Source of the DNA: Carcharhinus longimanus
Lineage: Eukaryota
Direction of reading: 5' to 3'
NCBI GenBank assembly: GCA_030264375.1
Contig: JASCQW010000081.1
Location: forward strand, 53,108,875-53,172,874
Length of the DNA: 64,000 bases
A program made the position numbers and the translations under genes. Shown piece after piece: positions 44,789 to 58,518 of this stretch (positions are counted from its first letter, which is position 1; every line of letters begins with the position of its first letter). The notes under the pieces were generated by a model. The model had not been told where the DNA came from. It did not search any database and saw nothing but the letters and a program-made list of their open reading frames with translations.

Positions 44789-46285
44789 CTATAGAATCAA
44801 ATGATTGCAGATCAACGTTAATGGTATGTATACAAAACAGCTTTGAATGCATCAGTGTGCAAAAGTTGTACACTTACATAGGATTCTCAACACTATTTTG
44901 TTTACCATAATCACAGGAAGTACTTGCATTGAGCAATTCTAAATTTTAGTTTTTATTTTCCTCCTTCTCCTTAAAAAAAGGAAAACAGCGAACCAAATGA
45001 AGGTGGTGATCAATCTGTGGCGAACCACCATTCTGACTATGTATTCTAACATTCCCCTGTTCAAGTGCTTCCCCACAAGGCCAAAACTGAACACTGAAAT
45101 AACAACTTGCATTGCTTTGTGCCTTTGATGTTGGAAAACATTATGCTACTAAAAAGTGCTTTCGAATTAGCCAAAATTGACAGAGGGTCAAAGGAGGAGA
45201 TAATGTGGGGATATTACGCTGGAGGAAGGGGGTGGCTAATAACTTAATCTGAGGGAAGTTTTGAGTAATGCAAAAGAAAAATAGAGCAATGGAAGGTGGG
45301 CACTTTTAGAAAGGGAAATTCAGATTTTCAGGCCCACATAGTTAAAGGTCCACCTTAAGAGACTAGAGTTATTAGAGTGCAGAGTTCTTGAAAGAAGTTA
45401 CAGAGAAAGGGACAGGCAAAGCCTTTAAGGGTTTTGAACATGCAAATGAAAATTTTTAAACGTGATGCACTGATGCATCATGTGTCAACGTAGATTAGCA
45501 AGAGGTGATGGTTGAGTGCACTTGCTGTGGGTTAGGATATGGGCAGCATGGCTTTTACTTCAAGCTTATGGAAGATGGACAGTGGACAGCAGTAGAATAC
45601 ACATTTATAGAGGTGACAACAGATTTCAGCAACAAACAGGCTGAGACAGAAGGCAGAGACAGCAGAATTTGAGACTGGGACGAGCATAGTGGTTAAAAAC
45701 GGGCAGCATGGGCAAGTTGGGCTGAGTGGCCTGTTTCCATGCTGTAAACCTCTATGACTCTATTCCAGTTTAAATAGAGCTGATTCACTAAAAGGAAGTA
45801 GAGGCACCAAATTCATCGAGGCATAAGCATTATGAGTCTGAGATATTTTCTCTAAAATTTCAGTAATGATAAAACCTTAACTAACTAAAGCACATTCCAA
45901 ACTTTTTTTTAAATGTAACCAATAATTTATAAACAAAATTAACTTTACAGCCATCAAACTAATAAAATGATGCATCTGCTGGGATACAAAGCCAGCGGAG
46001 AGGTTAATAGCTGGATAACAATTTAAAACAAATGATTTATCTTAAAAATGTACAGCAATAAGTTTATGAAAGGAAAACAGCCTATGCATTTTTATTGCAA
46101 TGGTGCTCCAATATGTGATTGCTTTGAGCAGTATCAAAAACAGTAAATGAATTTCATTTTACCATATCAAAGATAAACTAGGGACAACATTGTTACAATA
46201 CTTCAAATTAATAATAGTACAGTCAAGACCACTTTCTTCCTCTCAATATTTCCAATAAATTGATTTAGTTATTAAAAATACTTAC

Positions 46286-46375
46286 TGGTGGTACAAGCTG
46301 CAATCCCAACTCATTTACAACAGATTCAAGCTGACGTTCCAAGTCACTGGCAATATTCAGTTCATATGGTTCCAC
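46286..46375 (-). CDS. DHX9: DHX9 exon 9
   Basis: 90 nt; VEPYELNIASDLERQLESVVNELGLQLVPP. Confidence 0.94.
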
Positions 46376-47366
46376 CTAAAAGAATAAATGACACCAATGT
46401 AAAAGCCTTCTTACAAGTTAAGATTATGTTTTAACTTACAAAGAATGCAATTCAGAGAAACAAGTTACAGAAAACTATTCAAAACAGAAATAGTTTCCTA
46501 TAGTGTATTTCACAATTGCTAAGATTTTGGACGGATCTAAAACCCAAATTATCACTTATCCTCATTGAATATTGCAGAGTGATTTGCAGAGACTCTAACA
46601 CATTTATTTGAGATTAATACAGGTCAGAACACCTCTCATTGTGCTTGGAAGTTATAAAATTTCAAAACGCTTAAACCTGGGACTTGGCTTTAACCATAAT
46701 TTCTTGGAAGGGGAAAATGAAGTGCTTCATACTGAACATTACTTCACACTGAACATCACTTCACCTCATCCACTGCCACTTACCTTCTTGAAGCCACCAC
46801 AGCAAATATTTCCCTTATACTGTCTAATGTTTTCTCTTCTTTTCTTAAAGACATGAACTCATGGCAGGCACAATATTCCATGGATGCTGATCACCCTCCA
46901 GTACCTCATCCACAGTCAGTCTTCGTGTGTCACAATGATCACCAAGATAATGAAAAGCAGAAATTTTCAATTGTTTCCCCTGTACTCATCTAACATTCAC
47001 ACTTACAGCAGGGACTAGTGGATAATAGGAACAGGAACCTTGATCCATTTTATTCCCTAATCAGGAGACAAGACAGTTCATTGCTGTGTCTCTTCCACTT
47101 AGCTGAAATGGGAGTGGAGGATTGACAAAAGAAGCAAAGATGTGGCATTCCTACATCTGCTCAATATTTATCATTAAACCAATTAGGTTAATGTGGGAGC
47201 CTTAACAATAGGTATTTTGTCAGTCAGTTTATGCATCATGAAACAATTCAAACTGCCATCACGAAAGGAAAATTTGATTAAAGTAAATGTAATCATAAAT
47301 GTACCTTTACCTTGCAATACAATAACATGTAAAGTCATGAAACATTCAAAATGTTAAATGATTCAC

Positions 47367-47503
47367 CTTTTCTGTTTCCTTTTTCTTTGTATGTCCAGTG
47401 AAAGCTTCAAACACCCCCAGATGGTAAAGCTGTCTGACCAAAGACAGTGCACACGACTGTGCAGCTAGTTTCTTATTTGAACCATGTTCACGAGCTGTGA
47501 TTC
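47367..47503 (-). CDS. DHX9: DHX9 exon 8
   Basis: 137 nt, phase 1-0; [45 protein letters not shown]; uses a less common AAG acceptor. Confidence 0.95.
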
Positions 47504-48267
47504 CTTGACAGAGAAAAATATACAACGTTCCAATTCATCTTTTAGCACGAGTTTTACAACGTTATTTATGCAGCACATGCAGTTTCACAAGGTGCTCAAA
47601 CTAGAAACTTAAAGATGAATATAAATTGCTTCATCCAACAAGATGCCCCATCCCTACAACTATTATAATTACTCAGCTACAAAATTGCAATTACGATTTT
47701 TGTTTTGTGTGCACAAATTTCACGATTATCAGCATATGTGAATGTTCATGCACGTCACCACCATATTCTTCTGCAGTCAGAAACTGTTCTCTGAAATTAT
47801 ACAATAAGTTAATTTCCAATGTCAATGACATTTTTTTAAAAATCTTTTTTAAAAGTGTGGCACTCACCATCCTAAATATTGGAAACTAAACTTGTAACTT
47901 TTCAGTCTGTTTTAACTTATTGCCGTTTACTTCACTCAATTCTACCTACCTGCAAACGTTTAGCTGGCTAAAAGGAACAAACATTTAAGCAAAAAAAAAA
48001 GAGCTGAGCCAAGCAATAATGACAACTGATAAACTATCCACGATATAACAACATAAGAAATAGGAACAGGAGTAGGCCATCTAGCCCTTTGAGCCTGCCC
48101 CACCATTCAAGATCATGGCTGATCTGAAGTGGATCAGTTCCACTTTCCCGCTTTCTCCCCATAACCCTTAATTCCCTTATTGATCAGAAATCTACCCGTG
48201 ACTTAAACTAACCCTTCATTGTAAAACAAACCCTTCATTGTATAGCTCTTCTTAACAATAAATCCTT

Positions 48268-48599
48268 CATGTGGAGATGCCGGCATTGGACTGGGGTAAG
48301 CACAGTAAGAAGTCGCACAAGTTTTGCAGTTAAGTATCGCGCGTTTGGGGACATCGCAGGTGTCAGCACACCTGAAGTGCAATGGGCTGGCCTCGTCCTG
48401 GGCGAACTGCCTGCATGATCACAGTTACACCAGGTAAACATCAGGTTAAAGTCCAGCAGATTTATTTGGTAGCACGAGCTTTAGGAGTGCTGCTCCTTCA
48501 TCATAGGTACTCACCCGATGAAGGGGCAGTGCTACAAAAGCTCATGCTACCAAATAAACCTGCTGGACTTTCACCTGGCGTTGTGAGATTTCTTACTGT
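48268..48599. mobile_element. Palindromic non-autonomous element (probably Penelope-end derived) hosting the U1 fragment
   Basis: Arms caggttaaagtccagcagatttatttggtagcacgagcttt and aaagctcatgctaccaaataaacctgctggactttcacctg; flanked by ataaatcctt / ataaaccctt. Confidence 0.75.
48316..48441 (-). pseudogene. U1 snRNA-derived fragment (5' end to Sm site; stem-loop IV missing)
   Basis: Minus strand reads atgtttacctgg...tgatcatgcaggcagttcgcccaggacgaggccagcccATTGCACttcaggtgtgctgacacctgcgatgtccccaaa...actgcaaaacttgtg, colinear with U1. Confidence 0.88.
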
Positions 48600-49111
48600 A
48601 TAAACCCTTTAAGTTAGCTGTTTTCCACGTGATGTCAGCTCGAGTTATTACAACCTGTTTACCTCCTATTGAAAGTGAAGATCTACCCCCTACCTGGTCT
48701 CACAGCCCCCATTCACAATTTTACACTCTCTATTTCCAAGTCCCCACGAATAATAGGAGTTTTAGATAATTCTCGAGCTATTGTCCTTGGAACAGAGAAA
48801 GCTAATGGAGGCTTTCAAGGTGGTTCTAATGGAAAAAAGCTATTCACACTGGCAGGTGAGTTAATTTCCAGAGGTGATGCACTTAAAATCATTGGTAACA
48901 GATCTAAAGGGAAGATGAGGAGAGAGCTTTTATTCAGAGCGTGTCAGGTTCCAGCAACACTATCAGGAGATGTGTTGGAAACTAATTCCAAGAAAAATAA
49001 TTTTCTACAGCAGCTGGACAAGCGTTTAAGGATGAGAAACTTGTCAGGTTACAGGTCCAAAACAGGGGTGTGGTCTCAGCATTACTGCTCCATCAAACAG
49101 CCAGCTACATT

Positions 49112-49385
49112 GGGCGGCACGGTAGCACAGTGGGTTAGCACTGCTGCTTCACAGCTCCAGGGTCCTGGGTTCGATTCTCAGCTCGGGTNNNNNNNNNNNN
49201 NNNNNNNNNNNNNNNNNNNNNNNNNNNNNNNNNNNNNNNNNNNNNNNNNNNNNNNNNNNNNNNNNNNNNNNNNNNNNNNNNNNNNNNNCACAGTACTCCA
49301 GCTGCGGCCTCACCAGCGCCCTGTACAGTCGCAGCAAGACCTCCCTGCTTTTATATTCTATCCCCCTCACTATAAAGGCCAATGG
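49112..49385. mobile_element. HE1 head (+), gap, CR1 fragment (-)
   Basis: ggcggcacggtagcacagtgg head; RGIEYKSREVLLRLYRALVRPQLEYC. Confidence 0.8.
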
Positions 49386-50104
49386 ATATAGCGATATCCA
49401 AAGGCGATATGGATAAGCCACAATCTTTGGCATAATTGTCATGTTACCTTATCAATGTAAACAATTTATTAAGAAATTAGTGTGTCTTTAAAAAGCTAGT
49501 AATCTAGACGGACAACTGTAAATAAATTGGAGATACTTGAGTTTTAAGAAGAATTATCATTCGCCAATGTCTTTGACACAACCAAGACTCAAACGTGCCT
49601 CATTCTCAAGTTCCCTACTTCCAAGTGAGGATTCAAATAGACCTCTTTGCATCGCAGCTCAGCTAGGAAACAGGATGATGGCCCCAATCCTGAACAGAGT
49701 TTATATTTGCACAGAGAATGAAAAATGCTTTCTAATCCTTGGACCAATGCATTGATTCTAATTTGAACACATTTTTTACTGCATTTCAGTAGTAGGGGAG
49801 GCAGTGGTGCAGTATTGCATTGGTCTAGTAATCCAAAGGCCCAGGGTAATGCTCTGTGGACCTGGGTTAAATCCCACCACAGCAGAAGTGGAATTTGAAT
49901 TCAATTAAAAAAAAGCAATGTAGAGCAATGACAACATTTGTGTTCAGCCATATACCAGTAGAGTACTCCATCTACAGCCTTTAACTTTGAAAAGAATAGT
50001 TTTAAAAGAAACTGAGCAGCATAAAAACCTGCAAGAGGACTTGGTACAAGTACAGAGAACTGTTTAGCTTTTAATTCTAAATGAGGTGCATAAGTTCTTT
50101 ACAA

Positions 50105-50280
50105 CAAAAACAGGAAATGCTGGAAAATCTCAGCAGGTCTGACAGAATCTGTTGAGAGAATAGAGCCAACGTTTCAGATCTGATCATTCTCTCTCCACAG
50201 ATGCTGTCAGTCCTGCTGAGATTTTCCAGCATTTTCTGTTTTTGTTTCAGATTTCAGCATTCACAGTATTTTGCCTTTAC
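50105..50280. mobile_element. Short foldback element (Penelope-end type)
   Basis: aaaacaggaaatgctggaaaatctcagcagg / cctgctgagattttccagcattttctgtttt; related half copies near 5030, 12230, 34905, 57670 and 59175. Confidence 0.75.
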
Positions 50281-50363
50281 ATAAAATTTCTAGTCTTATA
50301 TACAGTAGTCACTGTATTTCCTGGAATTTTCAGCTTGCCAACTTATCTAAATAAAAATAGAAA

Positions 50364-51080
50364 ATGTTATGCTTCATTCTATCGTGTTACTATGCCTTTA
50401 GAAAAAATATTTTTTTAATCATGCTCTCTATAGTTACAGGCAGCTTTGTTTTTGTTCATTGTGGCACCAGCTGCCTGATTAGATGTCCTTTCTATTTTTG
50501 TTTAAGAGATTTAAATGATTTTGTTCATTTTTACTCTGGGCCTAACGCACTTTTTGGGAGTTTATGACCTTTTGAATTGTTGTGGTAAGAATGATTGACA
50601 AGTCAGGAGGGACAGTTTTTTTTTCCTCTGTCAAGAATTCTTATTGACAGAGAATTCAGGCTGGATGTAGTGTTCTGCCTCTTTCAACGTGGTGTTTTGG
50701 GAAGCTGTTCTGGCCTCAAGTTTGTGCGCGTCACGAGAACTGTCAAGAAAAGTGTGTGTTAAGAAAACTGCAGAATCCCACAACAAAACATGAGCATAAG
50801 AGCTTCCTGTGTTAATCCCAAAAAGGGTGCTTGTTTCGAACAGTGCACTTAGCAGTTAAGTTTTATACAATATCATAGTTGTTTATTTCTTGTTTGTAAT
50901 TGGTAAAAGTTATTGCTAATTGTTAACTGTATTCTTAAATACAGGCGCGCACCCTACCGGCTCTTCATGTCAGTCAGTGTGGTGAGCCAGTAAGATCGCA
51001 AGACAGATGAAAACCTGGCTTTGTGCCCGGTTTCTGATCTCTTGGGATACTACTGGCATTGGCGTGATCGGGCTTGTGCC
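50364..51080. mobile_element. LTR-like remnant related to 27664-28507
   Basis: Starts TGTTA; shares tgcctttagaaa and aattggtaaaagttattgctaatt...ttaactgtattcttaaata motifs; 3' end unclear. Confidence 0.5.
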
Positions 51081-51940
51081 CCCGAAAGGAGTGAGGCTGA
51101 TTATAATATTTAAATCTCAAATTAAGTATTATTAGTGAGCCCGGGGCGGAATCGTCTGGGCTCACTTGCCTTAATGGACTCGTGGTGGAGATCCTCACCA
51201 GCGAGGATCATGTATGATCCCAGCAACAGGGGCCAAGACGTGATGGCCTTCGAGTGGGAGGGGCACTGCCAGCCTGGCACCCTGGAACTTCCCACTGACA
51301 GAGCCTAAGGGGAGGGGGTGGGGCTGTGCACTCAAACTGGGGTTTGGGTGGTGAGCAGGGATTGAGATGGCAATTGACTGGGGAAGCCAGCTGAGGGGAG
51401 GGGAGGGGAGGGGGAGCGTACACAGAAATCCAAGATGCATGTGTAACAGTGCCCCTTGCAGTCAGCAGCTCGCTTCCTAACAAGAATAGACTCCATCCAC
51501 TCTGCCTACTGATGTGATTCACACTTTGCCTCTTTTTTGCACGAAGTGGCATAAGTTACCATTTGAGAGCTCACCTAAAAAATTGGTGATATTCTATCCC
51601 GTTTTCACACTCATTCAGCATTTCGAATTCTTTTGGTAAGAGTACCCCCTGATTTTTTTTCCAATTAATCGCCACACTTATTAAGTTCAGTCTTCACCAA
51701 AATATGATTTCCCCCCACCTATGTAAGCAATTTCAAAGATTTGTTATATCAAGTATTTTTCTCAGTTTTGTTTCTGATATATTCCAATCGTTTAATAATG
51801 CATGCTGATTTGCTGGGCTGAATGTCCAATACAATTTCATGGCAGCTGAGCTGTTATTGCAGCTGGTTAAAATAGTATTGTTTACAAGTCTTACAGTCAA
51901 GGGCAAAACTAGGCACCTCCAAATGTAAGTGACTACTTAC

Positions 51941-51987
51941 TTCTTCCCAGCTGTCTCACGTGAATAGTCATCTCTGCAATAAAACTC
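51941..51987 (-). CDS. DHX9: DHX9 exon 7
   Basis: 47 nt, phase 2-1; SFIAEMTIHVRQLGR; tttcag acceptor, gtaagt donor. Confidence 0.95.
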
Positions 51988-53646
51988 CTGAAATGACATG
52001 CACAACATGAAATTAAATCTGCCATTTTAGCACTTCCACCAACCCAGTGATACTGAACCATATAATAAAATTTAACAAAATAATGCCCAACACATCTTGA
52101 ACAAATGGGAAAAGGCATGATTTGTAAAGTGAGAATACAGTACAATGCAAATACTTCAGATGTAGGTGATAAAATCGCTGCAAATAGTAATCTAGAAGTT
52201 TAAAATGAGTTGAAATATTCCATCTATTCTAGCTTCTAAAGACGACAATAAGACATATCAAAACAATAAGATAAAAAAAATCAAAGGGCTTCAAAGTCAA
52301 ATATAACCAATCTTAGTGAAGCAATGCAAATTTTTAGCATAGTGCACAATTAGTGGCACAACTCTATTGGTTGCTGCAGGAAATGCAGGACAGCGTTTAC
52401 ACCAATGTCTCCCCACAGGGAGATAATCGCATTTAGGCAATTAAGTAGAAACCCAAGAAGCAAGTGGGGCTCTTCTACTTGCAGACCTCCCAGGGGAGGA
52501 TTACAGAGGGGCACTGGGGAGCATTACAGAGAGGCATTAGAGTAACTTAATAGATGATTATGTACGTACCATTTATCACAAAAATATTGAATGGAAGCAG
52601 AGAAAACTGAATATCAATTGAAAAACAAAAATCCTTAATTTAAATGGTTACTTGGGTTTGCAACAGAGTCTTGGCATAAACAGAAAAAAAAAATTAGCCA
52701 TAACCGATAGGGCATCCATTGTTTGGAACTTATTTACAAGTTCCACGAACCAAATGTGGTTAAATGTCATCATCTTACTGTGCATCACAGCTGAGTACAG
52801 CAGCTTATGTAACCCATCCTTTGCCATATACAGGCTCAGAAGTATTTGAAAATATTTGCCATACACTTGCGTGGAAGAATTTAATAAATTCCATACTCAT
52901 TTATGAATCCATTTTTACCTGTGATACAAAAATAAACGATTGATGTACATAACAAAACAATGGCTACCCGAAAGTATTGAATTTCCTAGCTTTGAAGAAC
53001 AATGTGCTCTAGAACCATGTACTCTAATCTCAAGTTTGCAAGTTTTTGCATGGGCAAGCAATTTTTTTAAATTTTTCAATCCAATCATAATTAATTGCCA
53101 CAAACTACCTATTCATATATACATTAAATCCAAGGCAGCCATTTTATATTAGCGGCAAACTTTTAGAAACGCATTGATATAAATAAATGAACTGGAATGC
53201 AACATACAAAGATTTTAAGCTGTAATAAAACTTTCTCTATTTATACCTGTAATTTAAAAAATGTCAGTGAGGCACTTAAGAAAAACACATTCCTGCACTG
53301 AATATGAAAAAACAGGGAAAGTTGCATCCAATACACTTTAGTACTGCAGCATTGTATATGTGGTTAATTTCAACTGTGCATTAGCATTTGAATGGAAAAC
53401 TGTTGAGCTGGAACTAGCGTCCTGACTGACCAATTTCATTAAAGAACAAAGTAAAACAGAATTGTCATATCATCCGAATTTTCTATTGCTTTGACATGCA
53501 CCCAAACACAAGTTTTGGCCAGTTCTAAAGATAACATCCAAATGATGTGCCATCAATATATGGTTCAGTTCTGGAATCTAGTCCTTGGCATCAACAGCTT
53601 TTCTTCAGTACTATGCATGCATCTTGTTTTAATCTGTATAACTCAC

Positions 53647-53808
53647 TTCTGATCCTATATTTGGTCAACTGAGATCAAGCACAGCAACTTCACGATTCAG
53701 AGAAGCCTGTTAATAGGCCCATTATCCACCATTCTTGGATGCCAGTATGTTTCTCTGCCAAGCTTAGTAAAGTTCCAATCTCCATCAGCCCTAGGTCCCC
53801 TAGAACAC
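53647..53808 (-). promoter_or_regulatory. Candidate DHX9 poison (PTC/NMD) cassette exon in intron 6, exon 6A-like
   Basis: cttttcctatag|GTGTTC...CAGAA|gtgagt; 162 nt; in-frame TGA at 53699-53697 when spliced to exon 6; no recognisable repeat nearby. Confidence 0.6.
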
Positions 53809-55189
53809 CTATAGGAAAAGTGACACCAGAAATCAACAGCTGTCTATGATTGCTTGTACCATCATTCCTACAATGGAAGGATACCATGTGACAGCTTAGT
53901 GCAGCCTAAGCAACGTCACATGTTTGCAAGAGCGGTTTCTGGTGTCACCTCACTCCCATGACATTAAAGGAGTGACAGGTTTGTCACTTTTATTTAGTTT
54001 AAGTTTTCTATCTTACAATTTATCATCTATGGTTAAAAATATTTGCAATCGAACACACAAGTTTTGAAATAATATCATTGCACATTATAGACATTCTGCC
54101 CATTGAGTTTTCAAAGTACATAACTTATGTGCATCTATGTTTTTAAAACAATTTTGCATACTCAACATAAGTGCACAATGTTTTGGGAGGTCGAATGTAA
54201 TTTGGTAATTTAGTACCTTCTCAAACGTATGGGCAACATAGGAAACTGCTTCTACAGTAGATCCCTGCTATTTGGGCCTGTAAAGTCATAAAATCTCCAA
54301 ATAAATGAAAATCATCATCTCTGAACAATATGTTGCATCTTGAAATCCAATAGAAATTCAACAATCTGTTATTTCCCAATTAGCAGGAATCTACTATATC
54401 ATATTTAAGTTTCTTAGCATTCATAGGGGTACTGGGCAACTACCCCATTGAAAGCTCTATATAACAAGGCAAGCTGGCTGAGAAACATACTGGTACCATA
54501 CCATGAAGTATGGAATAACTCAGTTTTCAAACAGAAACCATCAGCTACAACAGGAACATTATTATGACAACTTAAAAAATACTTTTCACTAACACTAGCT
54601 TTCCCATTGCCTAGTACAATATCCTAATTATCTGCTCCTTCAGTGTTTTAAATGTATTAGGATTACATTCTGTCAGCTAAGTTAAAGAAGTTTCATNNNN
54701 NNNNNNNNNNNNNNNNNNNNNNNNNNNNNNNNNNNNNNNNNNNNNNNNNNNNNNNNNNNNNNNNNNNNNNNNNNNNNNNNNNNNNNNNNNNNNNNNCAAT
54801 CCTTGAGATTCAATGCTGAAGTACTCAAAATCAATTTAAAAGCTTGATGTGACCTGACTAGTACCTCTTAGCTGAAATCTTTTTTCCATTACTGAAAACA
54901 ACCTTATTTGAGTAACTTCAGATTGAAGACCCTAAACATTCAATAGTTGCCGTACATTTCAAACTGATCAAATGAGACAAACTATCTTTTACAGTCTGTC
55001 AGCATGCATTCAGCATTATAAGTTCACGTTGCAGCACTGCCACTAAGTTCAATAACAGCATTATGGGGAAAAAAAAGAAAGTTGCTGGAGATTCAAAAAA
55101 AGTGTGTTTTCGCTGGTCAAACTTCATCTTGTAATTATACCCACTAATTCGTGTGTATAGTCATTCATTTGGCGTAGGTCTGCTACTGC

Positions 55190-57190
55190 AGTCGCTTCAG
55201 GAGCCGAATATTCTCTTAATCCTGAAACTGGACAAAAATTCTGAGCAGTGCACTTCTCAGACCAATTTCTTCCTTGAATGTCGATTTGAAAGTGTTGGCT
55301 AAGATGCCTGGAGAAAATCGTTCCTGTGGTTACCTGTGATAAGACTGAATTTATTAAGGGTCAGATCTCATCCTTCTTGGATGTCGAAAAAGCCTTCAAA
55401 TAGGGTAGATTAGAATTATTTCTTTGATACCTTGAAAAAGTTTGGATTGGGAGAGTTTGGATTGTGAAGTGAATTCAAGTACTCTTAAGAACCCAGTGGC
55501 GATGGTCCTTACAAATGGTTTTAGATCTTAGATTTTTGGCCTCAAGAGGGACAAGACAGGGATGTCCCTCATCTTTTTTGTTTGCTCTAGCTATTGAATT
55601 TTTGGTGCAGGTCGTTAGACATGACCCAGGTTTTTGGGTTCTAGAGTACAGGAAGACTGCATAAAATATGTGGATGATATGTTGCTGCTTGTTTCCATGT
55701 CGGCTGTCCTGCTATTACTGATGAGGGAGCTAGATTTAGTTTTTTTGCGTTGTAAGATTAACTTCACGAAATCAGAGGCAATGCCCCTGGGCATGTTAAA
55801 GGGTAAACCCCTCATTCTTCTCATTTTCCCTTCAGGTGCCCTGCCCCCCACCCCCATTGGGGTTTACTTATCTGGGCATTCATATTGCCCCTGGTTTTCA
55901 GCAGTTCTAAAAGGTGAACTTTCCTCAAATACTAGCCTCCATTAGATGGGTCATACATTGTTGTCCATGAGTTGGAGGGGAGATCAAATTTAACATTCAC
56001 TCTTCAATTCAGGGTAATCCAGATTTCCCGCCTGGTTGCATGAATCATGGTTTGATATCTGGAGGACAGAAGACTCTGTAGATAAAGGCTCATAATTGAT
56101 AGCATTACCCTGTTATCTTTTGAGCAGCAATGTTGATTTTCCAAAACACTCCTTTTTTTTAGATATTTGCAACTTAGGGACTTTGACCTTAAAGCAACTC
56201 TTCTTTTAGATACTATCTGTGGAGCCCAAACATTTCATTAGTAAATTTTCTGACCCACTATGCTCTAGATTTTACATTACATTGGACACTGTGTTCTTAG
56301 GAAAGAGACCTCACAGTAAATCTTGGCAAGGAGACATAGGGTGGTATTTGAGAGTGCAGTAATAAAATTTCAGTTTGGAATAAAACAAAAAAACTCAGCT
56401 TAAACATGGCATCACCTGTATATTACTCTAAGTTTGAGGCACAGGGTTGACCCAGCCACATCCTCATTTTGCCAGAAGTGTGAGGTGGACGCAGAGGATT
56501 GCCTGCACTGTTGTTGGTCCCATGTCAAAATGAAAGCCTATTGGTTCAATGTTCTTAAATAGCTTTACAGGATCTTTGATATGGCCTTAAAGTTCATTCC
56601 CACGCATTCAATACTGGGTCTCCCAGACAAAAGAATCAGTAACGTGAATGAGAAAAGGCTATATAAGATGCTATCTGCAACACGGAAGAATATTCTTTGT
56701 CCACAGATTAGTGATAAGCCCCTTCAATTTGGATACGGCATAAAATCATTCTGGAACGTATACCAGTGGAATTCATAACTAGTTTACTTTGAGCTAAATC
56801 AGATACATTCCGTAAAGCATGGGTCCCTTATCTTAAAGTCTGGACACCACATGGTCTAGTTTACTCCAACAAGGTTTACAGCAAGTTCCATGGCTCTGTC
56901 ACCATTATCCTGTAAGCTTGGTTGTGCACCGCTGAGTCAACTGTGGCCATATCCTGTTGTCCTAATACTCCCCCCATCCTTCAATATATCATTTTGTTCC
57001 TTTGTGAGATGGGAGGTGCTGACTACAATGAATAATCTGAACTAACTGGATTGGTAATTTTCCTTTCTTTTTCGACACATGCTTGTTTGAAAATGATCTT
57101 GCCTTACTGCACCAATCTTTGAGAGCTTGTTGCATTAATTGTATAAAATGAATAAAAACTTCAATGAAATTACATTTTGAAAAAAAGTCA
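55190..57190 (+). mobile_element. Degenerate L1/Tx1-type LINE 3' part
   Basis: RPISFLNVDLKVLAK, FLDVEKAF, RGTRQGCP..LFALAIE and YVDDMLL motifs, Cys-rich C-terminal remnant, A-rich end. Confidence 0.8.
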
Positions 57191-57714
57191 AGCTTTTATA
57201 CAAACTAGTATTATTCAGAAAGGCATTGCAATGTCCTGAGAGATTACCAGGTCATCTTTCTCAGTTACTACTCACATATCATCTAGGACCAGGACAACTA
57301 GGTAAAAACCAAAAGAAAGGAGAACGAATTTGAGTAATTAGTAAAGAAGTTCATTTTTATGCATAATGAATCTTTGTCATCTGGGTAAGTCTGAATCATG
57401 CCAAAAAACATTGCAACCGATTCCTGAAGCATTTTCGAATTATTTTCAATTTTGAATGTAAAAGTGAATTGGTGCCCAATTTAGAAAATTAAAAATACAA
57501 GAAATCCTAGCAGCTTAAGAAAAAAGTAAATAAGCATTTGAAGAGCACCACGAATATCCGCCGAGTTTACCAAGCACCTCTCAATAAAATACATTTGAGA
57601 TGTTCTCATTGTCATAATGAGAAAAACATTAGAACTTGTTGGCCCTTATGAAACGTTAGCTCTGTTCTCCCTCACCGCAGATGCTGAGATCTTCAAGCAT
57701 TTTCTTTGAGATTG

Positions 57715-58369: not shown

Positions 58370-58518
58370 CTGTTGTGGTCAGGTCCCACTTGTAAATACT
58401 TATAATCTGCTTGAATCTTCTCTTTTTGGAAGAATTGGTTAAGTTGTGCTTTGGCATTTTCAAGTGTCCAATTGCCATGAAGGCCAGCATTCAAATCTAA
58501 GCCTTCAGATTCCAAAGT
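58370..58518 (-). CDS. DHX9: DHX9 exon 6 (start of dsRBD2)
   Basis: 149 nt, phase 0-2; TLESEGLDLNAGLHGNWTLENAKAQLNQFFQKEKIQADYKYLQVGPDHNR. Confidence 0.96.

Follow-up and report, generated by a model that had tools for sequence, protein, structure and literature searches.

A conserved exon with an in-frame stop in DHX9 intron 6 of Carcharhinus longimanus, spliced in a relative: a likely poison exon with splice sites likely masked by predicted RNA helices

The 64,000-nucleotide (nt) stretch of Carcharhinus longimanus DNA analysed here (the window; contig JASCQW010000081.1 of GenBank assembly GCA_030264375.1, positions 53,108,875 to 53,172,874) contains, on the minus strand at 53808-53647, a 162-nt exon with an in-frame stop codon in intron 6 of the gene for the RNA helicase DHX9. 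Both ends of the exon are used in RNA-like contigs of one relative (organism D), and its sequence is conserved in all five organisms compared. We consider it likely that this is a conserved poison exon whose splice sites are masked by predicted RNA helices. Overall, the element is probably a constrained unproductive-splicing switch in the slot of human DHX9 exon 6A, gated by RNA structure and possibly opened by DHX9 itself.

Results

Sequence, reading frame and genomic context of the exon

Exon 6 was identified as DHX9 by 42 of 49 identical amino acids to RNA helicase A (PDB 3vyx_A, E 7e-25). In the 6.4-kilobase (kb) intron that follows, the exon lies 4561 nt after exon 6 (about 2500 nt without a repeat) and 1659 nt before exon 7. 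Its acceptor reads ...cttttcctatag, its first letters are GTG and its donor is GAA|gtgagt; both intronic splice sites are canonical, as expected of a poison cassette exon in a protein-coding gene. Spliced after exon 6 (phase 2) it reads R-CSRG...NRLL-stop, with the TGA at 53699-53697, 37 codons past exon 6 and more than 50 nt before the last junction. The 162-nt segment, acceptor, donor and TGA proposed in the initial annotation are thus all borne out by the sequence, and the exon, its splice sites and its stop are real. The same annotation counted more than 20 downstream junctions; the stop does lie far upstream of many, but only 19 later coding exons were recognised (from lists of open reading frames, in part by likeness to the known protein, with Pfam support for 3).

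The splice-site pair of the exon is the only one in intron 6 with both scores at or above 9.2 and 8.0 bits, while by summed score it ranks 2nd of 71 in intron 6 and 26th of 873 across the gene body; the scores derive from general frequency tables, and the thresholds were set by the exon itself. Its splice scores are therefore good and moderately special, but not unique. What lifts the exon above chance is conservation and junction evidence, not the stop or the splice scores. The reading frame of the exon has no match in Pfam, and an Rfam search gave no credible family, the best hit being SNORA1 at 28 bits (cut-off 70, E 0.11). This weak match spans 51949-52117, over the exon 7 acceptor, and is likely due to chance.

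The segments 53000-54600, 53620-53940 and 51990-53000 each match only themselves in the genome G000, in a self-match search that skips very common words. The region 51990-54600 is single-copy in G000, in line with the earlier statement that the surroundings of the exon lack repeats, and an origin of the exon as a transposon fragment was rejected as this search, which passes over very common words, gave no other genomic copies. The segment 54800-58360 gives 73 matches in G000, arising from a repeat at about 57200-55130. This is a decayed element of about 2 kb, roughly 70-75% like many genomic copies. A contig of organism D skips it (joint 55070-57182), and the repeat is therefore a lineage-specific insertion. 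Runs X1 and X2 have just 4 letters in place of the 100-N assembly gap at 54697-54796.

Both splice sites of the exon are used in organism D

Seven sequencing runs were taken as RNA by inference (none is recorded as RNA); all seven carry exon-exon joints, and exon 6 is joined to exon 7 in each of them. In run X9 (organism D, study P4) exon 6 is also joined to 53808 (58370/53808) with GT-AG ends, at a depth of 25.6 compared to 220.6 for the exon 6-7 joint, i.e. about a tenth. Loose-end letters beside 53808 map to exon 6. X9 also holds the unspliced form across 53808, demonstrating that the joint is not a genomic deletion.

Use of the donor is seen in run X10 (organism D, study P5) as a bubble made up of a contig that ends at 53645, another that begins at 52918 and a third with the unspliced intron in between. 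The end at 53645 marks the divergence of spliced and unspliced forms after a common GT, and the loose end behind 52925 maps uniquely to 53654-53674. The exon donor at 53647 is joined here to a second, unpredicted acceptor at 52918, with removal of a 728-nt GT-AG intron. This acceptor scores 8.8 bits, is directly followed by GT and aligns in organism E. Of the two junctions predicted for the exon, 58370->53808 is thus observed (X9, organism D), while the donor is seen joined to 52918 and the joint to 51987 is listed in none of the 7 runs. A second cassette at 52918-52779 (donor 5.2 bits) was rejected, as the X10 contig runs through it unbroken.

Coverage of intron 6 amounts to 30 of 30 bins in X2 and to 29 of 30 in X1, and retention of the whole intron is suggested for the RNA-like runs of organisms A and B; in 4 of 4 runs no contig extends past either end of the stretch into intron 5 or 7. 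Intron 6 thus appears to be selectively retained. Another strong acceptor (8.6 bits) is located at 53867, 59 nt upstream of the exon start; no use of it is seen in the listed contigs of X1, X3, X9, X10 and X13, which run through it unbroken. Splicing from 53867 would lead to a stop at 53692, and a direct joint of exon 6 to 52918 to a stop at 52917. With predicted helices, second acceptors and intron retention, the exon system is more elaborate than drawn earlier.

The exon and its upstream flank are conserved

Of the 24 listed runs (8 coded organisms), 20 contain a 341-nt stretch around the exon. The comparison covers 7 runs from 5 organisms (A-E) and does not count the remaining 17, among which are the runs of F, G and H (shares 0.75-1.0). 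In 5 of 5 organisms the block is conserved, with 0-2.8% differences compared to 1-14%, or unalignable sequence, elsewhere in the intron. Substitutions in the block and in the rest of intron 6, respectively, number 3/629 and 86/4410 in organism A, 0/416 and 69/5930 in B, 0/266 and 55/1228 in C, 9/319 and 208/1500 in D, and 8/305 and 15/185 in E, most of whose intron is unalignable at 80%. These counts refer to pieces among those listed and do not include gaps. Short repeat pieces (X2 records 9, 11-13; X3 19, 21), the overlapping pieces X3 16 and X8 15, A's 54078-54696 (3/619) and D's 54034-54068, 53590-53668 and 51961-52114 were left out.

In organism D coding exon 6 differs at 4 of 117 positions, the same rate as the block. 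Within the 2.4 kb compared, organism E aligns at 80% in just four pieces, namely the exon 7 acceptor, 52912-52962, 53195-53219 and 53627-53931, although its contigs continue. The aligned block stops 20 nt past the donor in E and starts at 53963 in D, at the 5' arm of the predicted helix H3 described below. Upstream of the exon, conserved sequence spans about 150 nt, and in A and B it reaches as far as about 54500. The exon sequence is under constraint in all five organisms.

Of the smaller elements, the 25-nt block at 53195-53219 is kept in organism E with 1 difference, and by eye a pairing of about 11 base pairs (bp) is possible near 54340. UGCAUG, which we take to be an RBFOX-type motif, occurs in intron 6 at 55008, 53621, 53500 and 52002, two of these sites lying just downstream of the exon; the one at 53621 is apparently altered in organism E.

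Predicted helices cover the splice signals

Among 150 windows in intron 6 the two best folds are 54420-54230 (z -5.1) and 53965-53800 (z -4.5, reached by 0 of 200 shuffles). The outer stem of the latter pairs 53959-53936 with the pyrimidine tract up to the AG (H3). Two long-range helices are predicted in addition, one between the exon body and 54497-54474 (H2) and one between the donor and 52844-52824 (H4). Together with the upstream hairpin H1 these are the four best helices in the single-copy 2.7 kb at 54696-51988 (-39.5, -33.2, -28.9 and -26.6 for H1-H4), a series that 0 of 300 shuffles reach rank for rank. Helices of 16-24 bp are predicted over the pyrimidine tract (H3), the exon body (H2) and the donor (H4), so that stable complementary regions are predicted at the exon itself. 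Ensemble pair probabilities are 0.77-0.93. The features are, from upstream to downstream on the minus strand:

58370..58518, minus strand: DHX9 exon 6, 149 nt, start of dsRBD2, weak donor (3.5 bits); from sequence and joints to exon 7
55130..57200, no strand assigned: dispersed repeat in intron 6, borders approximate; from 73 genomic matches and joint 55070-57182
54474..54497, minus strand: 5' arm of H2, a predicted 24-bp long-range helix pairing with exon body 53761-53738; pair probability 0.77
54253..54398, minus strand: predicted stem-loop H1 (54398-54375 paired with 54276-54253); top-ranked fold among 150 windows of intron 6, z -5.1
53811..53959, minus strand: predicted multibranch fold, outer stem H3 pairing 53959-53936 with pyrimidine tract 53832-53811; z -4.5, 0.82-0.87
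53627..53963, minus strand: conserved block with exon, both splice sites and upstream fold; from comparison of relatives
53809..53867, minus strand: candidate 59-nt extension from acceptor 53867 (8.6 bits), which would stop at 53692; from splice score
53647..53808, minus strand: poison exon (likely), 162 nt, TGA 53699-53697; acceptor use and donor use
53644..53664, minus strand: exon 3' end and donor, predicted 5' arm of H4; pair probability 0.87
52919..53646, minus strand: 728-nt GT-AG intron removed in X10; from contigs
52912..52962, minus strand: second acceptor, AG 52920-52919, 8.8 bits, GT directly after; one of few pieces aligned in organism E
52824..52844, minus strand: predicted 3' arm of H4; from fold prediction
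51988..52918, minus strand: 931-nt segment after the second acceptor, which may be kept as an extension up to exon 7 or be an intermediate of recursive splicing; X10 contigs 1 and 2
51941..51987, minus strand: DHX9 exon 7, 47 nt; from joints and sequence

Elsewhere in the gene, two tiles in 45856-51273 hold very strong helices (-85.8, -64.7), which are probably inverted repeat copies in introns. The DHX9 product binds duplexes of the kind that inverted repeat copies would form in its own introns.

Comparison with human exon 6A

In human exon 6A the stop is UAA; knockdown of UPF1 stabilises the exon and a slow polymerase favours it (PMC4741636), and hnRNPM and SRSF3 repress it (PMC7072589). It is 137 nt long (supplements of PMC7347940 and PMC8501971) and lies 1398 nt after exon 6 and 818 nt before exon 7 (PMC7347940). 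RT-PCR (reverse transcription PCR) products of 433 versus 237 bp correspond to 196 extra nt, 59 more than 137 (PMC7347940); human coordinates for this 196-nt form were looked for in the literature and not found.

Of the published human primers for exons 6 and 7, the junction primers match the exon ends of the window at 16/20 (exon 6/6A) and 20/22 (exon 6/7), and a further one matches at 18/23. As the junction primers end and start at the same codons, intron 6 of the window is orthologous to the human intron with exon 6A, confirming for intron and phase the earlier proposal that the same regulatory slot is used. In contrast, for four human primers in and before exon 6A the match to the window exon does not exceed that of shuffles (p 0.65-0.98; p 0.52 for the colinear pair).

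The two exons thus share the gene, the phase-2 intron 6-7 and an in-frame stop (human: NR_033302; PMC4741636, PMC7072589, PMC7347940), as well as the GTG start and minor inclusion. They differ in length (137 versus 162 nt), in the stop (UAA versus UGA), in the lack of similarity at primer level and in the joining of the window donor to the second acceptor at 52918. Control of the human exon is ascribed to polymerase speed, hnRNPM and SRSF3, and RNA structure and non-mammalian conservation are unmentioned in the accessible portions of these papers.

Discussion

Relationship to human exon 6A

The exon may be a true orthologue of human exon 6A, kept since the jawed-vertebrate ancestor while its sequence diverged, a reading to which we give somewhat less than an even chance. 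It accounts for the shared intron and phase, the GTG start of both exons (as given by the human primer) and the comparable position in the intron (1398/818 nt in human, 4561 (about 2500 without the repeat)/1659 nt here). The strong acceptor in the window exactly 59 nt upstream of the exon equals the human RT-PCR excess over a 137-nt exon, a coincidence that hints at homology; it was noticed after the fact, the human 59 nt are of uncertain source and another paper gives only 137 nt. Divergence must then explain why the four exon 6A primers match at shuffle level while exon 6 and 7 primers match well, and why length and stop codon differ. The same lack of primer similarity is what an independent origin or a replacement in the same intron would predict, i.e. 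convergent use of one regulatory slot, which we regard as plausible but short of probable. SR genes offer a documented case of poison-exon turnover (PMC4379411), and BRD2 and BRD3 one of independent poison exons under structural control (PMC10789245). About 85 nt of primers is, however, a weak test at this distance. DHX9 presumably has some 27 introns, and it is unlikely that one of them was chosen twice without shared history.

Alternative roles of the spliced sites

The sites at 53808 and 52918 might instead serve recursive splicing as ratchet points, or belong to a switch based on intron detention, with the observed joints as intermediates that lead to normal mRNA or to nuclear decay and not as substrates of nonsense-mediated decay (NMD). 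Both acceptors are followed by GT, and the rebuilt donors score 4.6 bits (exon 6 with the exon start) and 7.8 bits (exon 6 with 52918) compared to 3.5 for exon 6 itself. Detention is consistent with the coverage of intron 6 (30/30 bins in X2, 29 in X1, introns 5 and 7 not crossed in 4/4 runs), and the final joint to exon 7 is not listed. Yet pure ratcheting has no need for a conserved exon body and a strong, used donor, and classic recursive splicing concerns introns longer than the 6.4 kb found here. Retention beside poison exons is common (PMC4379411), so that detention is compatible with a poison exon. We consider this explanation improbable. Even less probable, to the point of being very doubtful, is that the block is conserved for another reason, as an enhancer or a structured non-coding RNA, with the splicing as noise. 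The roughly 150 nt of conserved sequence before the exon (up to about 54500 in A and B) and the origin of the inclusion junctions from one organism would fit this reading. However, in organism E alignment of the block stops 20 nt beyond the donor and the second acceptor is conserved as a piece of its own, the Rfam search returned no credible family (SNORA1 at exon 7 scores 28 bits, below the cut-off of 70), and the exon joint reaches about a tenth of the depth of the main joint.

Strength of the poison-exon reading

Several observations weigh against the structure-gated poison exon that we favour. A stop codon was rejected as evidence for an exon, because 4587 of 4787 (96%) random 162-nt intron pieces carry one in the given frame. 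The runs consist of contigs, so that depths are rough and rare forms are dropped. Each inclusion joint comes from one run of organism D (acceptor 1 of 7 runs, donor 1 of 4), an organism that is not shown to be the species of the window. The joint of the exon to exon 7 (53647-51987) is not among the joints listed for the 7 runs, a listing that lacks 1 joint, and this could be explained by decay through NMD, contig pruning or a two-step route; we treat this missing joint and the missing exon-body contig in X9 as holes and not as evidence. As the block borders were picked after the data were seen, the Fisher values (3e-10 to 9e-3) are descriptive. With respect to structure, the helices are predictions in one sequence. 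Taken singly, the best shuffle helix reaches H1 in 0, H2 in 7, H3 in 37 and H4 in 96 of 300 cases; 3 of 16 natural 2.7-kb tiles of the gene hold at least three helices at -26 or better, and the whole 374-nt block folds at just z -1.5.

We nevertheless have high confidence that this is a functional unproductive exon. The included message is likely directed to NMD, judging from the position of the stop far upstream of later junctions. Gating of the exon by RNA structure is a model that we see as evenly balanced.

Relation to other unproductive-splicing systems

PMC4379411 provides precedent both for deep conservation and for turnover of poison exons. Like the poison cassette exons of SR and hnRNP genes described there, the exon lies in the gene of an RNA-binding protein, shows coding-level conservation and is flanked by intron retention; unlike these, it belongs to a helicase gene, and autoregulation is here only a proposal. 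Beyond the close relatives B and C the block is not ultraconserved (200-nt, 100% definition). BRD2 exon 3b and BRD3 exon 5b (PMC10789245) are likewise poison exons with long-range complementary regions in the same intron, and both were tested in minigenes. The BRD2 pair sits in the flanking introns, whereas the arms in the window, which are predicted only, pair with the exon and its splice signals.

Recursive-splicing exons have an acceptor followed at once by GT, a rebuilt donor and a stop-containing cryptic exon. The window exon shares the GT after the acceptor, the rebuilt donor and the stop; it differs in its short intron and in that re-splicing is not seen in the contigs. In the accessible literature, with subscription journals outside the search, we found no prior report on a conserved, shark, structure-controlled or self-regulating DHX9 poison exon, and the main text of PMC6547761 does not mention DHX9.

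Proposed mechanism and implications

In the mechanism that we propose, the weak donor of exon 6 (3.5 bits) would make intron 6 slow to splice. The predicted helices may mask the signals of the exon, which would then be mostly skipped, or the intron would stay unspliced. Once the helices are opened the exon could be included, alone or with the segment after 52918, and inclusion would bring in the stop at 53699 and likely NMD; early stops would likewise follow from use of the acceptor at 53867 or from joining exon 6 directly to 52918. The binding and unwinding of double-stranded RNA by DHX9 (PMC7787180) makes self-regulation a natural step: as a dsRNA-binding helicase it might open or bind the helices and thereby limit its own level, a tentative proposal that we consider on balance unlikely. 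More speculative still, and in our view quite unlikely, is that DHX9 senses its own helicase activity by opening this helix cage around the poison exon, with loss of the message as the outcome, and that the switch goes back to the ancestor of jawed vertebrates and persists in human as exon 6A, where control by structure was overlooked.

As an NMD switch human exon 6A is validated, and it has been proposed as a drug handle in Ewing sarcoma; the papers on it give, in their accessible portions, neither an evolutionary nor a structural account. The constrained and spliced counterpart that a distant vertebrate has in this intron makes it testable whether the switch is ancestral or was reinvented. 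A second testable question is whether a helicase gene is gated by an RNA structure that its own product can open, and the predicted arms provide exact targets for minigene and antisense experiments.
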